Shown here: positions 5,417 to 37,723 of the stretch, piece by piece
Layout of the letters: each line of letters opens with the position of its first letter
How positions within the stretch are numbered: the stretch's first letter is position 1
Source of the DNA: Octopus vulgaris
Taxonomy: Eukaryota
Length of the DNA stretch: 64,000 nucleotides
Assembly: GCA_951406725.2 (NCBI GenBank)
Contig: OX597822.1
Span: forward strand, 94,178,001-94,242,000
Direction: 5' to 3'
Notes under the pieces: model-generated
The model's input: the letters and a program-made list of their open reading frames with translations, nothing else
Databases searched by the model: none
What the model was told of the DNA's origin: nothing
Translations under genes and position numbers: made by a program

Positions 5417-5490
5417 AGCCCTAACACTAACCCTAAAACCCTAACCCTAACCCTAAAACCCTAACCTTAACCCTAAAACCGTAACCGTAA
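5417..5490. repeat. Short degenerate telomere-like (CCCTAA/CCCTAAAA) tract inside a putative MITE
   Basis: ccctaacactaaccctaaaaccctaaccctaaccctaaaaccctaaccttaaccctaaaaccgtaaccgtaa. Confidence 0.7.
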
Positions 5491-17577: not shown

Positions 17578-18526
17578 TTTCAAATTTTGGCACAAGGCCA
17601 GCAATTTCAGGGGAGTTGAATAAGTCGGTTACATCAACCCCAGTGCTCAACTGCTACTTATTTAACTGAAGTGATGAAAGGCAAAGTTGATTTTGGCAGG
17701 ATTTGAACTCAGAATGTCAAGATGGATGAAACGTTAAGCATTTTACCCAGTGTTGACACAAGGGGCTAAACATAAAGGGGACAAACAAGGACAGACAAAC
17801 GGATTAAGTCGATAATATCGACCTCAGTGCATAATTGGTACTTATTTAATCGACCCCGAAAGGATGGAAGGCAAAGTCGACCTTGGTGGAATTTGAACTC
17901 AGAACGTAGCGGCAGACAAAATACCTATTTCTTTACTACCCTCAAGGGGCTAAACATAGAGGGGACGAACAAGGACAGACAAACGGATTAAGTCGATAAT
18001 ATCGACCTCAGTGCGTAACTGGTAATTATTTAATCGACCCCGAAAGGATGAAAGGCAAAGTCAATCTTGGTGGAATTTGAACTCAGAACGTAGCGGCAGA
18101 TGAAATACCTATTTCTTTACTACCAACAAGGGGCTAAACACAGAGGGGACGAACAAGGACAGACAAATGGATTAAGTCGATTCCATCGACCCCAGTGCGT
18201 AACTGGTACTTAATTCATCGACCCTGAAAGGATGAAAGGCAAAGTCGACCTTGGTGGAATTTGAACTCAGAACGTAGCGGCAGACGAAATACCTATTTCT
18301 TTACTACCCTCAAGGGGCTAAACACAGAGGGGACGAACAAGGACAGACAAACGGATTAAGTTGATTATATCGACTCCAGTGCGTAACTGGTACTTATTTA
18401 ATCGACCCCGAAAGGATGAAAGGCAAAGTCGACCTCAGCGGAATCTGAACTCAGAATGTAGCGGCAGACGAAATACTGCTAAGCATTTTGCCTGGTGTGC
18501 TAACGATTCTGCCAGCTCGCTGCCTT
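17578..18526 (-). mobile_element. Chain of SINE-A segments (one full head, three ~184-bp headless repeats, one segment with a different tail) inserted in a piggyBac MITE
   Basis: Repeated junction aatac|ctatttctttactacc at ~17925, ~18109, ~18293; whole chain flanked by ATTTGACAGA(C/G)TAATATGA (17559-17577 / 18527-18545). Confidence 0.8.
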
Positions 18527-18985: not shown

Positions 18986-21900
18986 ATGTGATTGTTTATT
19001 TTTAGAATTACATTGTAGGACAGGTTTCAGGTACCAAATGTGTGATTGTTTATTTTTAGAATTACATTGGATTGTTATTTATCATTGTAGGACAGGTGTG
19101 TACGTGGACAGGTGCAGGTACCAAATGTGTAATTGTTTATTTTTAGAATTACATTGTAGGACAGGTGTCAGGTACCAAATGTGTGATTGTTTATTTTTAG
19201 AATTACATTGTAGGACAGGTGTCAGGTACCAAATGTGTGATTGTTTATTTTTAGAATTACATTGTAGGACAGGTGTCAGGTACCAAATGTGTGATTGTTT
19301 ATGTTTAGAATTACATTGTAGGACAGGTGTCAGGTACCAAATGTGTGATTGTTTATGTTTAGAAGGTACCAAATGGTATTGTTTATGTTTAGAAGTACAT
19401 TGTAGGACAGGTGTCAGGTACCAAATGTGTGATTGTTTATGTTTAGAATTACATTGTAGGACAGGTGTCAGGTACCAAATGTGTGATTGTTTATGTTTAG
19501 AATTACATTGTAGGACAGGTGTCAGGTACCAAATGTGTGATTGTTTATGTTTAGAATTACATTGTAGGACAGGTGTCATGTATTGTTATTTTAGAAGGTA
19601 CCAAATGTGTGATTGTTTATTTTGAATTACATTGTAGGACATTACATTCAGAATTACATTGTAGGACAGGTGTCAGGTACCAAATGTGTGATTGTTTATT
19701 TTCAGAATTACATTGTAGGACAGGTGTCAGGTACCAAATGTGTGATTGTTTATTTTCAGAATTACATTGTAGGACAGGTGTCAGGTACCAAATGTGTGAT
19801 TGTTTATTTTTAGAATTACATTGTAGGACAGGTGTCAGGTACCAAATGTGTGATTGTTTATTTTTAGAATTACATTGTAGGACAGGTGTCAGGTACCAAA
19901 TGTGTGATTGTTTATTTTCAGAATTACATTGTAGAACAGGTGTCAGGTACCAAATGTGTGATTGTTTATTTTCAGAATTACATTGTAGGACAGGTGTCAG
20001 GTACCAAATGTGTGATTGTTTATTTTTATAATTACATTGTAGGACAGGTGTCAGGTACCAAATGTGTGATTGTTTATTTTCAGAATTACATTGTAGAACA
20101 GGTGTCAGGTACCAAATGTGTGATTGTTTATTTTCAGAATTACATTGTAGAACAGGTGTCAGGTACCAAATGTGTGATTGTTTATTTTTAGAATTACATT
20201 GTAGGACAGGTGTCAGGTACCAAATGTGTAATTGTTTATTTTTAGAATTACATTGTAGGACAGGTGTCAGGTACCAAATGTGTGATTGTTTATTTTTATA
20301 ATTACATTGTAGGACAGATGTCAGGTACCAAATGTGTGATTGTTTATGTTTAGAATTACATTGTAGGACAGGTGTCAGGTACCAAATGTGTGATTGTTTA
20401 TTTTATTACATTGTAGAAGTACATTGTTTATTTTAGAATTACATTGGACAGGTGTCAGGTACCAAATGTGTGATTGTTTATGTTTAGAATTACATTGTAG
20501 GACAGGTGTCAGGTACCAAATGTGTGATTGTTTATTTTTAGAATTACATTGTAGGACAGGTGTCAGGTACCAATGTGTGATTGTTTATTTTGAAAATTGT
20601 GATTGTTTATGTTTAGAATTACATTGTAGGACAGGTGTCGGGTACCAAATGTGTGATTGTTTATTTTTAGAATTACATTGTAGGACAGGTGTCAGGTACC
20701 AAATGTGTGATTGTTTATGTTTAGAATTACATTGTAGGACAGGTGTCGGGTACCAAATGTGTGATTGTTTATTTTTATAATTACATTGTAGGACAGATGT
20801 CAGGTACCAAATGTGTGATTGTTTATGTTTAGAATTACATTGTAGGACAGGTGTCAGGTACCAAATGTGTGATTGTTTATTTTTAGAATTACATTGTAGG
20901 ACAGGTGTCAGGTACCAAATGTGTGATTGTTTATGTTTAGAATTACATTGTAGGACAGGTGTCGGGTACCAAATGTGTGATTGTTTATTTTTAGAATTAC
21001 ATTGTAGGACAGGTGTCAGGTACCAAATGTGTAATTGTTTATGTTTAGAATTACATTGTAGGACAGGTGTCGGGTACCAAATGTGTGATTGTTTATTTTT
21101 AGAATTACATTGTAGGACAGGTGTCAGGTACCAAATGTGTGATTGTTTATGTTTAGAATTACATTGTAGGACAGGTGTCGGGTACCAAATGTGTGATTGT
21201 TTATTTTCAGAATTACATTGTAGGACAGGTGTCAGGTACCAAATGTGTGATTGTTTATTTTTAGAATTACATTGTAGGACAGGTGTCGGGTACCAAATGT
21301 GTGATTGTTTATGTTTAGAATTACATTGTAGGACAGGTGTCGGGTACCAAATGTGTGATTGTTTATTTTTAGAATTACATTGTAGGACAGGTGTCAGGTA
21401 CCAAATGTGTGATTGTTTATGTTTAGAATTACATTGTAGGACAGGTGTCGGGTACCAAATGTGTGATTGTTTATTTTAGAATTACATTGTAGGACAGGTG
21501 TCAGGTACCAAATGTGTGATTGTTTATGTTTAGAATTACATTGTAGGACAGGTGTCGGGTACCAAATGTGTGATTGTTTATTTTTAGAATTACATTGTAG
21601 GACAGGTGTCAGGTACCAAATGTGTGATTGTTTATGTTTAGAATTACATTGTAGGACAGGTGTCGGGTACCAAATGTGTGATTGTTTATTTTCAGAATTA
21701 CATTGTAGGACAGGTGTCGGGTACCAAATGTGTGATTGTTTATTTTCAGAATTACATTGTAGGACAGGTGTCGGGTACCAAATGTGTGATTGTTTATTTT
21801 TAGAATTACATTGTAGGACAGGTGTCGGGTACCAAATGTGTGATTGTTTATTTTCAGAATTACATTGTAGGACAGGTGTCAGGTACCAAATGTGTGATTG

Positions 21901-22389
21901 TTTATGTTTAGAAGTACATTGTAGGACAGGTGTCAGGTACCAAATGTGTGATTGTTTATGTTTAGAATTACATTGTAGGACAGGTGTCAGGTACCAAATG
22001 TGTGATTGTTTATTTTCAGAATTACATTGTAGGACAGGTGTCAGGTACCAAATGTGTGATTGTTTATTTTTAGAATTACATTGTAGGACAGGTGTCAGGT
22101 ACCAAATGTGTGATTGTTTATTTTCAGAATTACATTGTAGGACAGGTGTCAGGTACCAAATGTGTGATTGTTTATGTTTAGAATTACATTGTAGGACAGG
22201 TGTCAGGTACCAAATGTGTGATTGTTTATTTTCAGAATTACATTGTAGGACAGGTGTCAGGTACCAAATGTGTGATTGTTTATTTTTAGAATTATATTGT
22301 AGGACAGGTGTCAGGTACCAAATGTGTGATTGTTTATTTTTAGAATTACATTGTAGGACAGGTGTCAGGTACCAAATGTGTGATTGTTT
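18986..22389. repeat. 54-bp tandem satellite, about 60-63 units
   Basis: Unit atgtgtgattgtttatttttagaattacattgtaggacaggtgtcaggtaccaa (18 codons, MCDCLFLELHCRTGVRYQ in the ORF track); one GGTACC per unit. Confidence 0.97.
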
Positions 22390-28380: not shown

Positions 28381-29149
28381 GAGAGTGGCTCCTGTACTGG
28401 TAATACACATCGCTTCATATAAAATTTACTCTTCTCATATTGTATGAACACCTTCCGTATTAACGTAGCAATAGGTAACGTATATAGACTTACAACAAAC
28501 TTTTCTTCACGATCATGCTACATTGGTCTGTGTATCAAAGTAGTTTACTGAGGTGTGGTTACTATTGTAACAAAATAGACAATGGTGGCTACTCTTTTAA
28601 TGAAAAAGTGGGTAAGCAAGAATGAAGGAGAGAAAACTAGATGAAATTTGGAATATGGAAATGGGCCATTGAGAGTTCATGTCACACCTAAATGTAGATT
28701 CCTTAGCTCTTGTCATCCATTTATTATTATCTCAATAACTTCATCCATGAAATCATTTTCCAATTCCCTCTTTTTTTTTTTATACCCTATAATGTGTTCT
28801 TGGTTTTCTTACATTTTCTACAATGTGTAAAAGCAAAAGCTCAATGTCTTACCTAAGACACCTCATGGCACATCATCCAAGACCATTTATTCTTCAGAGA
28901 TATCTATGTTTACCCCATGCTTGACATATACTGTGAGGACATTTTCTAAATACATATGTGTGATCCACTATAAATATATATACATACTAGCATTATGACC
29001 TGTTGTTGCCGGGTCATAGTGCTAGTGCATGTATATATGTGTATATATATGTGTACATATTACATGTACATCTATATATATACATCTACACATAAAATAC
29101 AAAATACAAAGTTATATCTTGATATCGCTAGTGATAACAATACTCAAAA

Positions 29150-29471
29150 TATATTACAGACTGGAATTGTAAGCCCATCTCTTGCAATTTCGATCAATTG
29201 CATCTTGTCCTCCCTCTTGTATAGAAGTGTGGCTACAATCCAGCCTACCTCTACTTCTGGGGGGACATTTAAAATTTTTTTCCGGGACGTTCTACATCCC
29301 AGTTATAAAGGTGAAAATAAAATATTTCCACTTTGCAAGTTCGAGTCGAGTACTCCCTTGCACGCTCCGTTGACTCGAACCTTGCTTCTATTGTGGCGAA
29401 TTTACCACCTCTGGTTAGATATCTTTCATAGTCGCACCAAGACACTTTTCAATGGTGCTTTCCTCCAGGTG
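29150..29471 (-). pseudogene. Decayed, diverged ORF1 paralog (host of the array), 3' part; the 5' part resumes at ~36574-36635
   Basis: Minus-strand translation across frameshifts HLEESTIEKCLGATMKD / RYLTRGGKFATIEARFESTERAREYSTR / KILNVPPEVEVGWIVATLL aligns with array ORF1 VEIAEIEKCLGDIMD / TYVSRGKKFGTVEVRCATEEIAASLATT / KIPNIPPEVKTEWLATAIL; right flank EKTIVYKVYNVEKK aligns with ENKTVTYRTQDKSTKK. Confidence 0.8.
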
Positions 29472-29713
29472 ATTTTATTACTACCCACAAGGGGCGAACA
29501 TAGAGGGGACAATACAATCGGGGAACTTAAAATAAGAAAGCGAAATGACAAGAAGGGAAAAACTAAAAATAAAAATGACAAATGAAAGAATATTTACAAT
29601 GAGATGCAAATGCCCACTCGATCCCCGGAATCGAGAGGTTACATTTTCGTCACATATAGTTCACAATTTTTTTTTTCTTTTTTCTCTTCTTTCTTCTCTC
29701 TCCTCTCACAATC

Positions 29714-31112
29714 TCACACGTATTCCATAATACTTTTCAAGTCTCTAAAGTCAATCACTGAGCCCTCAGGCAGCCGCTCTTTCACTCGAACACCCGTGTA
29801 AAAAATTACACTCTCTCCAGCTGCTCTGAGGAACTCAGCGACTCTTTCTTCGGGGATCAGAGCAGTCTCCTGCCACTGATCAGTCATCCTGTTGACCCAC
29901 ACATGTCCCTCCATACTACATGTCAATTCCTTCATTTCGGGGCTGAAATGGAAGGTTATTAACTTGTAGTAATCTTGTTTCCGTCCTACGTTTTCTCTCG
30001 TTTTTCTTTTCGGGCTTACTTCTTCCTTGTTCTCCTCTCTTTGTTTCTCTCTTTCTCTCTTTTTGCCTTCTTTTCTTTCTTCTTCCTTCTCTTGTCTTTT
30101 TGGTTCTTTGTCTGTTCTCTCTTTCTCTCGTGTTTTATGTTCCTTTTCTTTTTCTTTTGTGTGCCGTCTTTTCTTTTCGTTTGATTCTGATCTCTCTCTT
30201 GTTTTTTTCCTGTTGTTTCTTTTTCCTTTTTCTTTTCCTGACTCTGTTTTGGTTCTATTTCTTTCTTTTCTTTTATTTCTTTTTCCTTCGTTGACTTATT
30301 ATTTCCTTTCTCTTGTTGTTTTGTCTCCTTTTCTATGTTTTCTTTTTCATTTACCGTATTCTTCTTTCCTTCAATTTCCTTCTCATACTCCGCCATGAAT
30401 TCATATAACGGGCACTCTTTTTTAATGTGCCCCCTTGTCCCGCACAAGTAGCAGTTTGGCTTTCTTCCCTCTACAATTACACTGAGGGTTTTCTCGTCTT
30501 CGATTTCTATTCTATAGGGGAACCTTTCAATGTCCTCTTTTGTGGCCATCAAACACAGTTCTACCCCATATCCTTTCCAATTTACTGCATTGGACTCCTT
30601 AAAGGATTCCACCTCCACTTCCTCTTCTGCTGCTCCTAGAATAGCTGTTGCCAGCCATTCTGTTTTTACTTCTGGGGGTATATTCGGGATTTTAACCCGG
30701 ACCCCTCTTCTTCCCTTGTATGAGGGCCACATTATAAATGATTCCGCTCTTAGAACAGTGGTAGCCAGTGAGGCTGCAATTTCTTCCGTTGCACATCTCA
30801 CCTCTACCGTACCAAATTTTTTCCCTCTACTCACGTAGGTCGATTTATCCATTATGTCTCCCAGACATTTTTCGATCTCTGCTATCTCCACTCTTGCCAG
30901 TTTCTTTGTACTTTTGTCCTGGGTTCTATACGTTACAGTTTTGTTTTCCTTGTCCTCCTTTGCTTTCGCGGGGGGATTAGCTTCACGCTATCACCCTCCC
31001 TTTTGAATAGCTTTTCATATTCTTTGATTTTGCTTTTCTCAAAGAAAACATCCTTCACGATTATTGCTGAATCATTATTATTCTTTCCCGTGACCCCCGC
31101 GTAAGTCGCCAT
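29714..31112 (-). CDS. ORF1-like RRM/CCHC zinc-knuckle protein, unit 1 (one-T frameshift ~30155; G6 shift 30970-30975)
   Basis: CYLCGTRGHIKKEC knuckle; ORF pieces 30016-30891 and 29714-29935 join if one T is restored; upstream ATG at 31112. Confidence 0.7.
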
Positions 31113-31492
31113 GACTAGAGGGTCAATTCACCTTCTTCTGAAGGTTTCCAAACGTGGAGGCAAACGCCTCGCGCGATATTAATCACTTTACACAACAAAA
31201 TTTCACTGTCTAATCACAGATAACAACACGCAAATAGATTTCCTCCAGGTGATTTTATTACTACCCACAAGGGGCGAACATAGAGGGGACAATACAATCG
31301 GGGAACTTAAAATAAGAAAGCGAAATGACAAGAAGGGAAAAAATAAAAATAAAAATGACAAATGAAAGAATATTTACAATGAGATGCAAATGCCCACTCG
31401 ATCCCCGGAATCGAGAGGTTACATTTTCGTCACATATAGTTCACAATTTTTTTCTCTTTTTTCTCTTCTTTCTTCTCTCTCCTCTCACAATC

Positions 31493-32892
31493 TCACACGT
31501 ATTCCATAATACTTTTCAAGTCTCTAAAGTCAATCACTGAGCCCTCAGGCAGCCGCTCTTTCACTCGAACACCCGTGTAAAAAATTACACTCTCTCCAGC
31601 TGCTCTGAGGAACTCAGCGACTCTTTCTTCGGGGATCAGAGCAGTCTCCTGCCACTGATCAGTCATCCTGTTGACCCACACATGTCCCTCCATACTACAT
31701 GTCAATTCCTTCATTTCGGGGCTGAAATGGAAGGTTATTAACTTGTAGTAATCTTGTTTCCGTCCTACGTTTTCTCTCGTTTTTCTTTTCGGGCTTACTT
31801 CTTCCTTGTTCTCCTCTCTTTGTTTCTCTCTTTCTCTCTTTTTGCCTTCTTTTCTTTCTTCTTCCTTCTCTTGTCTTTTTGGTTCTTTGTCTGTTCTCTC
31901 TTTCTCTCGTGTTTTATGTTCCTTTTCTTTTTCTTTTTGTGTGCCGTCTTTTCTTTTCGTTTGGTTCTGTTCTCTCTCTTGTTTTTTTCCTGTTGTTTCT
32001 TTTTCCTTTTTCTTTTCCTGACTCTGTTTTGGTTCTATTTCTTTCTTTTCTTTTATTTCTTTTTCCTTCGTTGACTTATTATTTCCTTTCTCTTGTTGTT
32101 TTGTCTCCTTTTCTATGTTTTCTTTTTCATTTACCGTATTCTTCTTTTCTTCATTTTCCTTCTCATACTCCGCCATGAATTCATATAACGGGCACTCTTT
32201 TTTAATGTGCCCCCTTGTCCCGCACAAGTAGCAGTTTGGCTTTCTTCCCTCTACAATTACACTGAGGGTTTTCTCGTCTTCGATTTCTATTCTATAGGGG
32301 AACCTTTCAATGTCCTCTTTTGTGGCCATCAAACACAGTTCTACCCCATATCCTCTCCAATTTACTGCATTGGACTCCTTAAAGGATTCCACCTCCACTT
32401 CCTCTTCTGCTGCTCCTAGAATAGCTGTTGCCAGCCATTCTGTTTTTACTTCTGGGGGTATATTCGGGATTTTAACCCGGACCCCTCTTCTTCCCTTGTA
32501 TGAGGGCCACATTATAAATGATTCCGCTCTTAGAACAGTGGTAGCCAGTGAGGCTGCAATTTCTTCCGTTGCACATCTCACCTCCACCGTACCAAATTTT
32601 TTTCCTCTACTCACGTAGGTCGATTTATCCATTATGTCTCCCAGACATTTTTCGATCTCTGCTATCTCCACTCTTGCCAGTTTCTTTGTACTTTTGTCCT
32701 GGGTTCTATACGTTACAGTTTTGTTTTCCTTGTCCTCCTTTGCTTTCGCGGGGGGATTAGCTTCACGCTATCACCCTCCCTTTTGAATAGCTTTTCATAT
32801 TCTTTGATTTTACTTTTCTCAAAGAAAACATCCTTCACGATTATTGCCGAATCATTATTATTCTTTCCCGTGACCCCCGCGTAAGTCGCCAT
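31493..32892 (-). CDS. ORF1-like (Tx1/L1 gag-like, ZCCHC3-like) nucleic-acid-binding protein, unit 2
   Basis: 392-aa open frame 31493-32671 (GTG start in the track): RRM-like region (VKIPNIPPEV; FPYRIEI...VIVEG), CX2CX4HX4C knuckle, Lys/Glu-rich linker, ~85-aa C-terminal domain; likely true ATG at 32892 (gtcATGG) lies one base out of frame at the G6 run 32750-32755. Confidence 0.8.
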
Positions 32893-33274
32893 GACTAGAG
32901 GGTCAATTCACCTTCTTCTGAAGGTTTCCAAACGTGGAGGCAAACGCCTCGCGCGATATTAATCACTTTACACAACAAAATTTCACTGTCTAATCACAGA
33001 TAACAACACGCAAATAGATTTCGGACAGGTGATTTTATTACTACCCACAAGGGGCGAACATAGAGGGGACAATACAATCGGGGAACTTAAAATAAGAAAG
33101 CGAAATGACAAGAAGGGAAAAAATAAAAATAAAAATGACAAATGAAAGAATATTTACAATGAGATGCAAATGCCCACTCGATCCCCGGAATCGAGAGGTT
33201 ACATTTTCGTCACATATAGTTCACAATTTTTTTTTTTCTTTTTTCTCTTCTTTCTTCTCTCTCCTCTCACAATC

Positions 33275-34659
33275 TCACACGTATTCCATAATACTTTTCA
33301 AGTCTCTAAAGTCAATCACTGAGCCCTCAGGCAGCCGCTCTTTCACTCGAACACCCGTGTAAAAAATTACACTCTCTCCAGCTGCTCTGAGGAACTCAGC
33401 GACTCTTTCTTCGGGGATCAGAGCAGTCTCCTGCCACTGATCAGTCATCCTGTTGACCCACACATGTCCCTCCATACTACATGTCAATTCCTTCATTTCG
33501 GGGCTGAAATGGAAGGTTATTAACTTGTAGTAATCTTGTTTCCGTCCTACGTTTTCTCTCGTTTTTCTTTTCGGGCTTACTTCTTCCTTGTTCTCCTCTC
33601 TTTGTTTCTCTCTTTCTCTCTTTTTGCCTTCTTTTCTTTCTTCTTCCTTCTCTTGTCTTTTTGGTTCTTTCTCTCGTGTTTTATGTTCCTTTTCTTTTTC
33701 TTTTTGTGTGCCGTCTTTTCTTTTCGTTTGGTTCTGTTCTCTCTCTTGTTTTTTTCCTGTTGTTTCTTTTTCCTTTTTCTTTTCCTGACTCTGTTTTGGT
33801 TCTATTTCTTTCTTTTCTTTTATTTCTTTTTCCTTCGTTGACTTATTATTTCCTTTCTCTTGTTGTTTTGTCTCCTTTTCTATGTTTTCTTTTTCATTTA
33901 CCGTATTCTTCTTTTCTTCAGTTTCCTTCTCATACTCCGCCATGAATTCATATAACGGGCACTCTTTTTTAATGTGCCCCCTTGTCCCGCACAAGTAGCA
34001 GTTTGGCTTTCTTCCCTCTACAATTACACTGAGGGTTTTCTCGTCTTCGATTTCTATTCTATATGGGAACCTTTCAATGTCCTCTTTTGTGGCCATCAAA
34101 CACAGTTCTACCCCATATCCTCTCCAATTTACTGCATTGGACTCCTTAAAGGATTCCACCTCCACTTCCTCTTCTGCTGCTCCTAGAATAGCTGTTGCCA
34201 GCCATTCTGTTTTTACTTCTGGGGGTATATTCGGGATTTTAACCCGGACCCCTCTTCTTCCCTTGTATGAGGGCCACATTATAAATGATTCCGCTCTTAG
34301 AACAGTGGTAGCCAGTGAGGCTGCAATTTCTTCCGTTGCACATCTCACCTCCACCGTACCAAATTTTTTTCCTCTACTCACGTAGGTCGATTTATCCATT
34401 ATGTCTCCCAGACATTTTTCGATCTCTGCTATCTCCACTCTTGCCAGTTTCTTTGTACTTTTGTCCTGGGTTCTATACGTTACAGTTTTGTTTTCCTTGT
34501 CCTCCTTTGCTTTCGCGGGGGGATTAGCTTCACGCTATCACCCTCCCTTTTGAATAGCTTTTCATATTCTTTGATTTTACTTTTCTCAAAGAAAACATCC
34601 TTCACGATTATTGCCGAATCATTATTATTCTTTCCCGTGACCCCCGCGTAAGTCGCCAT
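33275..34659 (-). CDS. ORF1-like protein, unit 3 (in-frame 15-bp deletion in the K/E linker)
   Basis: 387-aa open frame 33275-34438; upstream ATG at 34659; G6 run 34517-34522. Confidence 0.8.
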
Positions 34660-35040
34660 GACTAGAGGGTCAATTCACCTTCTTCTGAAGGTTTCCAAAC
34701 GTGGAGGCAAATGCCTCGCGCGATATTAATCACTTTACACAACAAAATTTCAACGTCTAATCACAGATAACAACACGCAAATAGATTTCCGACACGTGAT
34801 TTTATTACTACCCACAAGGGGCGAACATAGAGGGGACAATACAATCGGGGAACTTAAAATAAGAAAGCGAAATGACAAGAAGGGAAAAAATAAAAATAAA
34901 AATGACAAATGAAAGAATATTTACAATGAGATGCAAATGCCCACTCGATCCCCGGAATCGAGAGGTTACATTTTCGTCACATATAGTTCACAATTTTTTT
35001 CCTCTTTTTTCTCTTCTTTCTTCTCTCTCCTCTCACAATC

Positions 35041-36439
35041 TCACACGTATTCCATAATACTTTTCAAGTCTCTAAAGTCAATCACTGAGCCCTCAGGCAG
35101 CCGCTCTTTCACTCGAACACCCGTGTAAAAAATTACACTCTCTCCAGCTGCTCTGAGGAACTCAGCGACTCTTTCTTCGGGGATCAGAGCAGTCTCCTGC
35201 CACTGATCAGTCATCCTGTTGACCCACACATGTCCCTCCATACTACATGTCAATTCCTTCATTTCGGGGCTGAAATGGAAGGTTATTAACTTGTAGTAAT
35301 CTTGTTTCCGTCCTACGTTTTCTCTCGTTTTTCTTTTCGGGCTTACTTCTTCCTTGTTCTCCTCTCTTTGTTTCTCTCTTTCTCTCTTTTTGCCTTCTTT
35401 TCTTTCTTCTTCCTTCTCTTGTCTTTTTGGTTCTTTGTCTGTTCTCTCTTTCTCTCGTGTTTTATGTTCCTTTTCTTTTTCTTTTTGTGTGCCGTCTTTT
35501 CTTTCGTTTGGTTCTGTTCTCTCTCTTGTTTTTTTCCTGTTGTTTCTTTTTCCTTTTTCTTTTCCTGACTCTGTTTTGGTTCTATTTCTTTCTTTTCTTT
35601 TATTTCTTTTTCCTTCGTTGACTTATTATTTCCTTTCTCTTGTTGTTTTGTCTCCTTTTCTATGTTTTCTTTTTCATTTACCGTATTCTTCTTTTCTTCA
35701 TTTTCCTTCTCATACTCCGCCATGAATTCATATAACGGGCACTCTTTTTTAATGTGCCCCCTTGTCCCGCACAAGTAGCAGTTTGGCTTTCTTCCCTCTA
35801 CAATTACACTGAGGGTTTTCTCGTCTTCGATTTCTATTCTATAGGGGAACCTTTCAATGTCCTCTTTTGTGGCCATCAAACACAGTTCTACCCCATATCC
35901 TCTCCAATTTACTGCATTGGACTCCTTAAAGGATTCCACCTCCACTTCCTCTTCTGCTGCTCCTAGAATAGCTGTTGCCAGCCATTCTGTTTTTACTTCT
36001 GGGGGTATATTCGGGATTTTAACCCGGACCCCTCTTCTTCCCTTGTATGAGGGCCACATTATAAATGATTCCGCTCTTAGAACAGTGGTAGCCAGTGAGG
36101 CTGCAATTTCTTCCGTTGCACATCTCACCTCCACCGTACCAAATTTTTTTCCTCTACTCACGTAGGTCGATTTATCCATTATGTCTCCCAGACATTTTTC
36201 GATCTCTGCTATCTCCACTCTTGCCAGTTTCTTTGTACTTTTGTCCTGGGTTCTATACGTTACAGTTTTGTTTTCCTTGTCCTCCTTTGCTTTCGCGGGG
36301 GGATTAGCTTCACGCTATCACCCTCCCTTTTGAATAGCTTTTCATATTCTTTGATTTTACTTTTCTCAAAGAAAACATCCTTCACGATTATTGCCGAATC
36401 ATTATTATTCTTTCCCGTGACCCCCGCGTAAGTCGCCAT
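35041..36439 (-). CDS. ORF1-like protein, unit 4 (one-T frameshift ~35502)
   Basis: ORF pieces 35343-36218 and 35041-35262; upstream ATG at 36439; G6 run 36297-36302. Confidence 0.7.
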
Positions 36440-36879
36440 GACTAGAGGGTCAATTCACCTTCTTCTGAAGGTTTCCAAACGTGGAGGCAAACGCCTCGCG
36501 CGATATTAATCACTTTACACAACAAAATTTCAACGTCTAATCACAGATAACAACACGTATAGCTTGGAGCCATGTGTTCAAATCTTCTTTTTTCTCTACA
36601 TTGTATACTTTATAGACAATAGTCTTTTCTTTAATTTAATTTTTTATTATCCATCTGGACTATTCCATTTCTGCACGCTAATTTTATTTTTAATTTATTC
36701 CCATTCATGTAAAACCACTTATCCAAGTTCAAGTCATTGATGCAATTTTATACCAATTGCTATTTTTACTTTTGTTATGTTACGATTATATTATACTTTA
36801 GTTTGATTTTAATTATTACTTACTACATATAATTCAATTGTTATTATTATTTTTATTGTTAAAGTGAAAGTATCTGACG

Positions 36880-37116
36880 TAAAATAGAGAAATGTTTTTG
36901 TTTCACTTTTAAAATGTAATACTGAAATAGTGGAGAAGATATGATATTGCTATGGGCTCGCCCTAGCAAGAAGTTGAACATTTTTTTGCCCATGAAACTA
37001 CATGGAGTCTAAGTAAGGCATGTGTAAAATTTGAATGAAATTGGTTGTGTAGTTCTCAAGTTTTAGGGAAACACACAGACAGACAGATACACATTCTCAG
37101 TTTTATATATATAGAG
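36880..37116 (+). mobile_element. Possible Helitron/Helentron-derived non-autonomous element; similar piece ~25320-25630
   Basis: ...aaatttgaatgaaattggttgtgtagttctc...acacacagacagacag...ttttatatatataga, resembling DINE/HINE-type ends. Confidence 0.4.
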
Positions 37117-37723
37117 ATTTCCTTTTTGTATTTGGTTTACAAGATTCTTTATGTGAATTTGAGTGTTGAAGCATAATTTATTTTGTCTGAGTAGAGTCAT
37201 TGTCTTTTAGTGCCTTAAAAATTAACACACTCACTAGTTCAATTTCCACTCATTTACTTATCTATTTTTTCTAAAATTACCATTGCGTCTTGCAACCTTT
37301 TCAGCAACTATTGAAAAGGTTGCGAGATGAAAAGAAAATTTTAAAAAAAATAAGTAAATGAATGGAAATCAAACCAGTTAAGTAATAAGGCACTAAAAGA
37401 GAATGTCTCCCCAGATACATCATCATCATTATCATCCTCATTATCGTTTAATGTCCATTTTCCATGCTGGCATGGGTTGGACAGTTCGACTTTGGTCTGG
37501 GAAGCCAGGAGGCTGCACCAGGCCCCAATCTGATCTGGCAGTGTTTCTACAGCTGGATACCCTTCCTAACACCAACTACTCAGAGTGTAGTGGGTGCTTT
37601 TTACATACCACTGGCACAGGGGCCAGAGGAGCTAGCATTGATCACGATTGGATGGTGCTTTTTACGTGCCACCGGCACGGAAGCCAGTCAAAGCAGCACT
37701 ATATTTATATATATATATATATA

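Follow-up and report, generated by a model that had tools for sequence, protein, structure and literature searches.

An array of a young ORF1-only retroelement at one fixed Helitron site in Octopus vulgaris, likely mobilised in trans by a co-resident LINE

We analysed a 64,000-nucleotide stretch of the Octopus vulgaris genome (contig OX597822.1, positions 94,178,001 to 94,242,000; called the window here, with all coordinates given as positions within it unless a contig is named). A preliminary description had pointed to a tandem array of a retroelement with a single open reading frame (ORF) of the ORF1 type and no reverse transcriptase (RT). The four nearly identical head-to-tail units were confirmed; they are about 1.78 kb each and lie on the minus strand with boundaries mapped to 29469-36573. 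We call the element HAL-A. The sequence evidence makes it very probable that a young ORF1-only retroelement forms this array at a single fixed position within a Helitron, likely copied in trans by a 5.26-kb long interspersed nuclear element (LINE) that is probably of the Tx1 clade, with new copies added at the 5' end. The features of the locus are the following.

28987..29468, minus strand: 3' part of the host Helitron, with a decayed ORF1-like fragment, a subterminal palindrome and a terminal CTAG followed by T
29459..29468, minus strand: target box of the host, CTGGAGGAAA; downstream member of the target-site duplication (TSD)
29469..31248, minus strand: HAL-A copy 1 (3'-most), 1780 bp; ATG 31112, stop 29714; head CTGGAGGAAA, the same as the host target box
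29474..29520, minus strand: 47-nt 3' tail of copy 1 with AATAAAA at its end; identity to the LINE 3' end 94%; every copy has this tail
31249..33028, minus strand: HAL-A copy 2, 1780 bp; ATG 32892, stop 31493; head CTGGAGGAAA; CCHC knuckle at about 32192-32233
33029..34795, minus strand: HAL-A copy 3, 1767 bp; ATG 34659, stop 33275; head CTGTCCGAAA; 15-bp in-frame deletion in the linker
34796..36573, minus strand: HAL-A copy 4 (5'-most), 1778 bp; ATG 36439, stop 35041; head ATGGCTCCAAGCTATA
36574..37117, minus strand: 5' part of the host Helitron, starting A/TC (the slash marks the element boundary)
36587..36605, minus strand: A-rich motif TACAATGTAGAGAAAAAAG upstream of the insertion point, with 13 nt between its end and that point; candidate targeting determinant

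Each unit consists of a leader of about 135 nt, a single ORF and a 3' untranslated region of about 245 nt terminating in AATAAAATCAC. Poly(A) is absent at the unit 3' ends, where AATAAA is present, and no ORF2 was found inside the four units, as the preliminary description had stated. In its span of 29459..36573 the first ten positions, 29459-29468, are the host target box and lie outside the unit. The stem-loop that it had placed beside the AATAAA was not supported: the sequence folds no better than its shuffles (z -0.46), and this held for both tails examined. A search of the junction for a ribozyme or known RNA in Rfam yielded nothing above threshold, the weaker matches being to TA repeats. 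Neighbouring copies are separated by 0.2-0.5% substitutions. The closest relative of copy 1 lies on another chromosome (0.23%) and not beside it in the array (0.52%), and that of copy 2 is on contig C4 (0.06%). The box GTGTCGGAAA sits between copies 4 and 3, and the copy-4 head recurs at 52.2 Mb of contig C3, where it has a 15-nt match to the head of the next element. The distinct 5' heads and the closer relatives of copies 1 and 2 on other chromosomes indicate that stuttering of the assembly did not produce the array.

The claim of one ORF per unit was upheld, with the start corrected to an upstream ATG; in intact copies elsewhere the ORF is 466 aa. In the assembly the frame is broken near codon 48 by a run of six Gs in all four window copies (30970, 32750, 34517 and 36297). 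One extra G was present at the copy-1 run in four of the four public sequencing runs aligned to 30400-32170 (extra-G depth over total 31.4/31.4, 143.6/143.6, 26008/38063 and 20457/31059), and four intact natural copies elsewhere have a continuous ORF of 465-467 aa. The apparent frameshift is therefore most likely a homopolymer error of the assembly. As assembled, copies 1 and 4 have an apparent second frameshift, in other homopolymer runs.

The 466-aa protein comprises two folds resembling RNA recognition motifs (RRMs), a CCHC knuckle, a charged linker and a C-terminal domain. The CX2CX4HX4C knuckle scored above the Pfam cut-off (PF00098, E 7.5e-5), a tandem RRM was predicted (model pLDDT, the predicted local distance difference test, 60.5) with IMP3 RRM12 as the best Foldseek match (E 2.7e-5), and the neighbours of the protein in the Atlas were CCHC and ZCCHC3-type RNA-binding domains (0.89-0.92). 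The RRM-like region and knuckle of the preliminary description were thus supported, and HAL-A encodes a predicted RNA-binding protein. For the C-terminal domain (aa 372-466) there was no match in the Atlas, and its single-sequence model (pLDDT 44) was unusable; a ferredoxin-like fold was considered for it and rejected, the full-model alignments at Z 7-7.8 being within background. Named protein matches of the ORF were from Octopus vulgaris. In five comparisons with older HAL-A copies the ratio of nonsynonymous to synonymous substitution rates (dN/dS) was 0.17-0.19 for the ORF and 0.09-0.17 for the RRM-knuckle core, indicating that HAL-A ORF1 is under purifying selection. HAL-A ORFs are listed as host protein-coding genes in a public O. 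vulgaris gene set.

HAL-A is not confined to the window. Searching the genome, with 22 of 1316 candidates scored, produced 46 matches, and the exact tail pattern gave 118 genomic matches, at least 10 of them LINE ends. Within the genomic sequence sampled there are at least 91 near-full-length copies at 37 loci, of which 15 have two or more copies. The copies show the marks of retrotransposition, namely precise 3' ends, 5' truncations and TSDs, and their subfamilies, ranging from 90% to 100% identity, nest within one another for the most part, though some homoplasy is present. In the largest array, at C7:100087135-100131547, 22 consecutive HAL-A copies precede a single full LINE; the identity of several neighbours suggests local duplication or assembly collapse atop serial insertion. 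Further ORF1-only families, 26-62% identical, occur in the same arrays (HAL-B, HAL-C and two HAL-D types), and the C-terminus of HAL-B is fused into other gene models of public octopus gene sets. A protein search for relatives scored 150 of 12,864 candidates. ORF1 relatives are named from O. bimaculoides, O. sinensis and Argonauta, one O. bimaculoides protein clustering with HAL-A/D (98/95). An ORF2 lay directly behind ORF1 in none of 50 relatives (the top 30 and 20 hand-picked from the 150 matches); homologues are thus not always trailed by an RT. None of the three refuting conditions named in the preliminary description (an assembly artefact, an RT ORF2 always following the homologues, no other copies) held, and its proposal of a young, non-autonomous, protein-coding element is supported.

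On either side, the array is flanked by parts of a single 1.0-1.2-kb repeat that has the ends of a Helitron (A/TC at the start, a hairpin and CTAG/T at the finish). Helitrons are defined by a 5' TC, a 3' hairpin followed by CTRR, and insertion between A and T without a TSD. Among 20 empty copies of the host, the 3' end could be located in 18, all followed by T and 17 ending in CTAG, and the 5' motif in 19, most beginning A/TC; the subterminal palindrome folds as a hairpin with z -4.77. By its end structure the host is a non-autonomous Helitron. Other copies of it show the ORF1 likeness of the fragment that it carries (tblastn E 3e-5 to 6e-4). The insertion site lies inside this captured fragment (29160-29468 and 36574-36640), so that the target may originally have been the ORF1 of another retroelement. 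Genome-wide, 304 exact empty sites were counted. At 13 loci, chosen for likeness to the query, hosts differed by 3.9% and inserts by 1.3%, and the host was the more diverged in 78 of 78 pairs; insertion therefore came after the Helitron had dispersed.

The same 10-nt box was found at both ends in 48 of 86 copies, the shared stretches being 10-17 nt long. When the 22-copy array was left out the count was 35 of 64, compared with a mean of 6.8 and a maximum of 18 in 10,000 shufflings. The repeated box is a target duplication of 10-15 nt. At array junctions in the window such boxes occupy, for example, 31239-31248, 33019-33028 and 34786-34795. Over its first ~6 nt the duplicated box is hypervariable, with 23 variants in 86 copies, while the bodies of the copies are 90-100% alike. 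A second target repeat is used by variants of the LINE and by ORF1-only copies, with a 14-nt duplication at 38.18 Mb of contig C3.

An autonomous element with the HAL-A 3' end was sought, and many arrays were found to terminate in a 5.26-kb LINE with an ORF1 and an intact ORF2 of 1132 aa, whose 3' tail is 93.6% identical to that of HAL-A over 47 nt. The ORF2 contains Exo_endo_phos, RVT_1 and zf-RVT domains, and its closest solved structure is human L1 ORF2p (E 6e-65; R2, 5e-26). With an N-terminal apurinic/apyrimidinic endonuclease (APE), an RT closest to that of L1 and a C-terminal zinc domain, the LINE belongs to the L1 group. It is probably a member of the Tx1 clade: a CCHC-bearing ORF1, the lack of poly(A) and target specificity for a repeat are in line with this, as are its RT motifs, which we take to resemble those of Tx1. 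The homologues retrieved for its ORF2 were unnamed, and naming the clade through cluster members gave no names. The LINE prefers a repeat target, 37 of the 40 LINE-type ends examined (out of 140) lying at the Helitron site (30) or against an array member (6 at a LINE-type head, 1 at a HAL-A head), and 3 elsewhere. Of 107 HAL-A-pattern ends examined among the 118, 89 adjoin either an element head (HAL-A in 51, LINE-type in 30) or the Helitron site (8). Outside the tail there was no high-identity alignment between the two elements, and their ORF1s are 26-27% identical and fall in separate clades; HAL-A therefore did not arise from this LINE by deletion, and a HAL1 in the strict sense, that is an internal-deletion derivative with a cognate ORF1, was ruled out. 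The shared tail and insertion point make mobilisation of HAL-A in trans by the 5.26-kb LINE likely. Nearly the same tail is carried by a 184-bp tRNA-like short interspersed nuclear element (SINE), with what we presume to be a B-box-like motif, present as 3.9 tandem copies at 17759-18476 and again at 2395, 3303, 6206, 7135, 25025, 39126 and 57909; it accounts for 10 of the 14 tail matches in the window, and may be mobilised by the same LINE group.

We took attachment depth on a rooted tree, with rooting by the ~90% copies, as a proxy of age. Eight of nine arrays with an age spread were older toward the 3' end, and adjacent pairs followed this polarity 12:1 above a depth threshold of 0.01 and 10:0 above 0.02, indicating that arrays likely grow at the 5' end with the newest copy in front. 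A natural deletion bears on how the site is chosen. One variant of the Helitron lacks about 300 bp including the normal site, and insertions into it are at a different sequence, again 13 nt after the same upstream motif (two are off by one). Intact Helitrons hold 686 occurrences of this second-site sequence and the deletion variant 114; nevertheless, all 13 second-site arrays with a readable 5' junction (10 of the fetched loci and 3 further loci) were in the deletion variant. An upstream determinant is therefore favoured, suggesting that the cut is anchored by the upstream motif. Such a determinant would also account for growth at the 5' end.

Arrays would arise because the element and its partner are site-specific and re-insert at one Helitron site, which gives an explanation for the array building claimed in the preliminary description. 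In the mechanism that we propose, HAL-A RNA would be bound by its own ORF1 protein, and the ORF2 protein (ORF2p) of the LINE would recognise the shared 47-nt tail. ORF2p would read the A-rich motif upstream of the site, nick about 13 nt downstream of it and prime reverse transcription there (target-primed reverse transcription, TPRT), and a second nick 10-15 nt further on would lead to duplication of the target box. The upstream motif would remain before the newest copy, the next insertion would be placed ahead of that copy, and the array would become roughly time-ordered. The RNA's 5' end would carry the box of the donor locus, which could sometimes replace that of the target, and local duplication would enlarge some arrays. 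More tentatively, and without favouring it, we consider a wider reading in which at least four protein-coding ORF1-only parasites, each with an old, non-cognate ORF1 of its own under selection, form a guild that tracks nothing but the 3' tail of one active site-specific LINE. ORF2p would then act as a 13-nt ruler, cutting at that distance from the motif whatever lies there, and the time-ordered arrays would be a polar record comparable, by analogy, to the leader end of a CRISPR array.

Several observations weigh against a simple form of this account. Without a threshold, adjacent pairs supported the polarity only 29:15 with 10 ties (p 0.049), the 0.01 depth threshold was picked after inspection of the data, and the age estimate depends on rooting by the ~90% copies; neither of two other age proxies, terminal branch length and nearest-neighbour distance, showed polarity (25:20 and 23:23). 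The array in the window has no age gradient, its four copies being too alike to be ordered. The boxes differ between the two ends in 38 of 86 copies, which requires the additional donor-box step; these differing 5' boxes often match heads at other loci, as does that of window copy 4. The junctions of HAL-B and HAL-C lie upstream of the main site by about 11-13 nt, and the second target repeat is struck at varied positions, so a fixed spacing is not universal. The sample from the second site comprised 22 element ends, with 16 loci fetched, 5 of them without a readable 5' junction and 1 on the wrong side. Finally, for 30 of 69 copies in multi-copy arrays the closest copy lies in the same array, and the C7 array contains several identical neighbours; local duplication (or collapse in the assembly) does contribute to some, long arrays. 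These last two facts, and the Helitron nature of the host, would also fit arrays formed mainly at the DNA level, by unequal crossover or Helitron rolling-circle amplification of a unit inserted once or carried by the Helitron. However, all 78 pairs have hosts more diverged than inserts, distinct families and a full LINE are mixed within arrays, neighbours diverge by up to 7.6%, and the window copies have distinct heads, with the best matches of copies 1 and 2 on other chromosomes. Amplification is thus largely refuted for the window and would apply at most to parts of long arrays; as the main source of the arrays we regard it as improbable. Site-specific recombination of a circle, an idea taken from the mimicry between tail and head, was dropped because TPRT would leave duplications, 5' truncations and exact 3' ends such as those observed, and because an APE and an RT are present in the partner.

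That the array is an artefact, assembled from a single-copy or dispersed repeat, is most improbable of all: although homopolymer errors are evident in the window copies, the copies are told apart by their heads and the 15-bp deletion, arrays recur at 15 loci, and a contig from run X1 joins a tail to a HAL-A head (its short side spans 27 letters, fewer than the 31 of the bridging rule, and X1 may be from the same animal). The identity of the mobiliser leaves somewhat more room. Another LINE outside the sample, for instance one with a cognate HAL-A-type ORF1, could copy the element, with specificity residing in the cut-site sequence and in 3' microhomology. The distance between the HAL-A ORF1 and that of the co-resident LINE would agree with this, as would the fraction of candidates scored in the protein search (150 of 12,864) and the match of the last 1-2 nt of each element to the target. 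On the other hand, no ORF2 immediately follows in any of the 50 relatives, HAL-A and the 5.26-kb LINE have their tail and insertion point in common, and the spacing is kept although the cut-site sequences differ between normal and deletion Helitrons. We therefore consider this alternative unlikely, and retain site-specific copying by the 5.26-kb LINE as the preferred reading.

Two other features of the window are a 54-bp minisatellite of about 60 copies with strong GC skew (19106-22389) and a short interstitial (CCCTAA)n telomere-like tract (5419-5490).

The system offers a natural, young, multi-family setting for the question of why ORF1-only elements retain their protein, and bears on whether such an ORF1 protein acts in cis, co-assembles with that of the partner or competes against it. 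The natural deletion places what determines targeting by a site-specific LINE of the APE type upstream of the cut; upstream anchoring, if true, would be relevant to site-specific RNA-templated insertion in cephalopods, for which hundreds of empty sites are available inside a dispensable Helitron. The arrays provide an insertion chronology of subfamilies, and the tail in common with an abundant tRNA-like SINE points to the likely mobiliser of that SINE.

ORF1-only LINEs are known as HAL1 (L1), HeT-A (Jockey) and Ag-Sponge (CR1) (PMC5786205, PMC5753468), and are described as internal-deletion derivatives (PMC5786205). Like them, HAL-A has one ORF1 protein, no RT, a LINE-type 3' end and, presumably, dependence on an autonomous partner. 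Unlike them, it has a partner that is probably Tx1, a non-cognate ORF1 (only the 47-nt tail is common), no poly(A) and site specificity, with at least four ORF1-only families at one site. A 2026 repeat annotation of O. vulgaris reports 13 recently active L1-Tx1 families; the terms 'ORF1', 'nested' and 'non-autonomous' are absent from its main text, the supplements being outside this count (PMC13282606). In the papers searched we found no description of an ORF1-only Tx1 element or a Helitron-targeting LINE, nor of the combination of features seen here, though Repbase/Dfam, subscription journals or supplements may hold these families; PMC4758252 and PMC11203168 contributed nothing further.

Tx1 elements that target DNA transposons have been reported (PMC4640811): Tx1 of Xenopus targets Tx1D, and Tx1-Mar and SINEU-3 of crocodilians target Mariner-N4_AMi, where tandem SINEU-3 copies sandwich a TSD and non-autonomous riders use the target of the LINE (PMC4494074). 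As in the octopus, an APE-type LINE is aimed at a non-autonomous DNA transposon and riders share its target; the octopus system differs in that the target is a Helitron, with the site in a captured ORF1-like fragment, the riders are protein-coding, and the arrays reach 22 copies with families mixed. In the R1 tandems of Drosophila 28S ribosomal DNA (rDNA), a copy already in place receives further copies in the 14-bp TSD at its 5' end, and the 5' end of R1 RNA sometimes includes flanking target sequence (PMC2718515). Re-insertion at the 5' end and target sequence on the RNA are what we propose for HAL-A; R1, in contrast, is an autonomous element that belongs to the R1 clade and resides in rDNA, whereas for HAL-A a natural deletion suggests that the determinant lies upstream, and the duplicated box is highly variable over its first ~6 nt. 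In the telomeric HeT-A/TART arrays, ORF1-only and autonomous elements are mixed head-to-tail and the array grows at one end. HAL-A arrays resemble these in composition and in their likely one-ended growth, but they are interstitial and formed by endonuclease-type insertion with TSDs, not by addition to a chromosome end. Taken together, HAL-A resembles HAL1/HeT-A carried by a site-specific LINE like Tx1-Mar, with arrays built in the manner of R1. Each ingredient thus has a precedent, in HAL1/HeT-A, Tx1 in Tx1D, Tx1-Mar or the Drosophila R1 tandems; the new points are that an element with a non-cognate ORF1 tracks a tail, that several families queue at a single Helitron site, and that the genome provides evidence for a cut anchored upstream.

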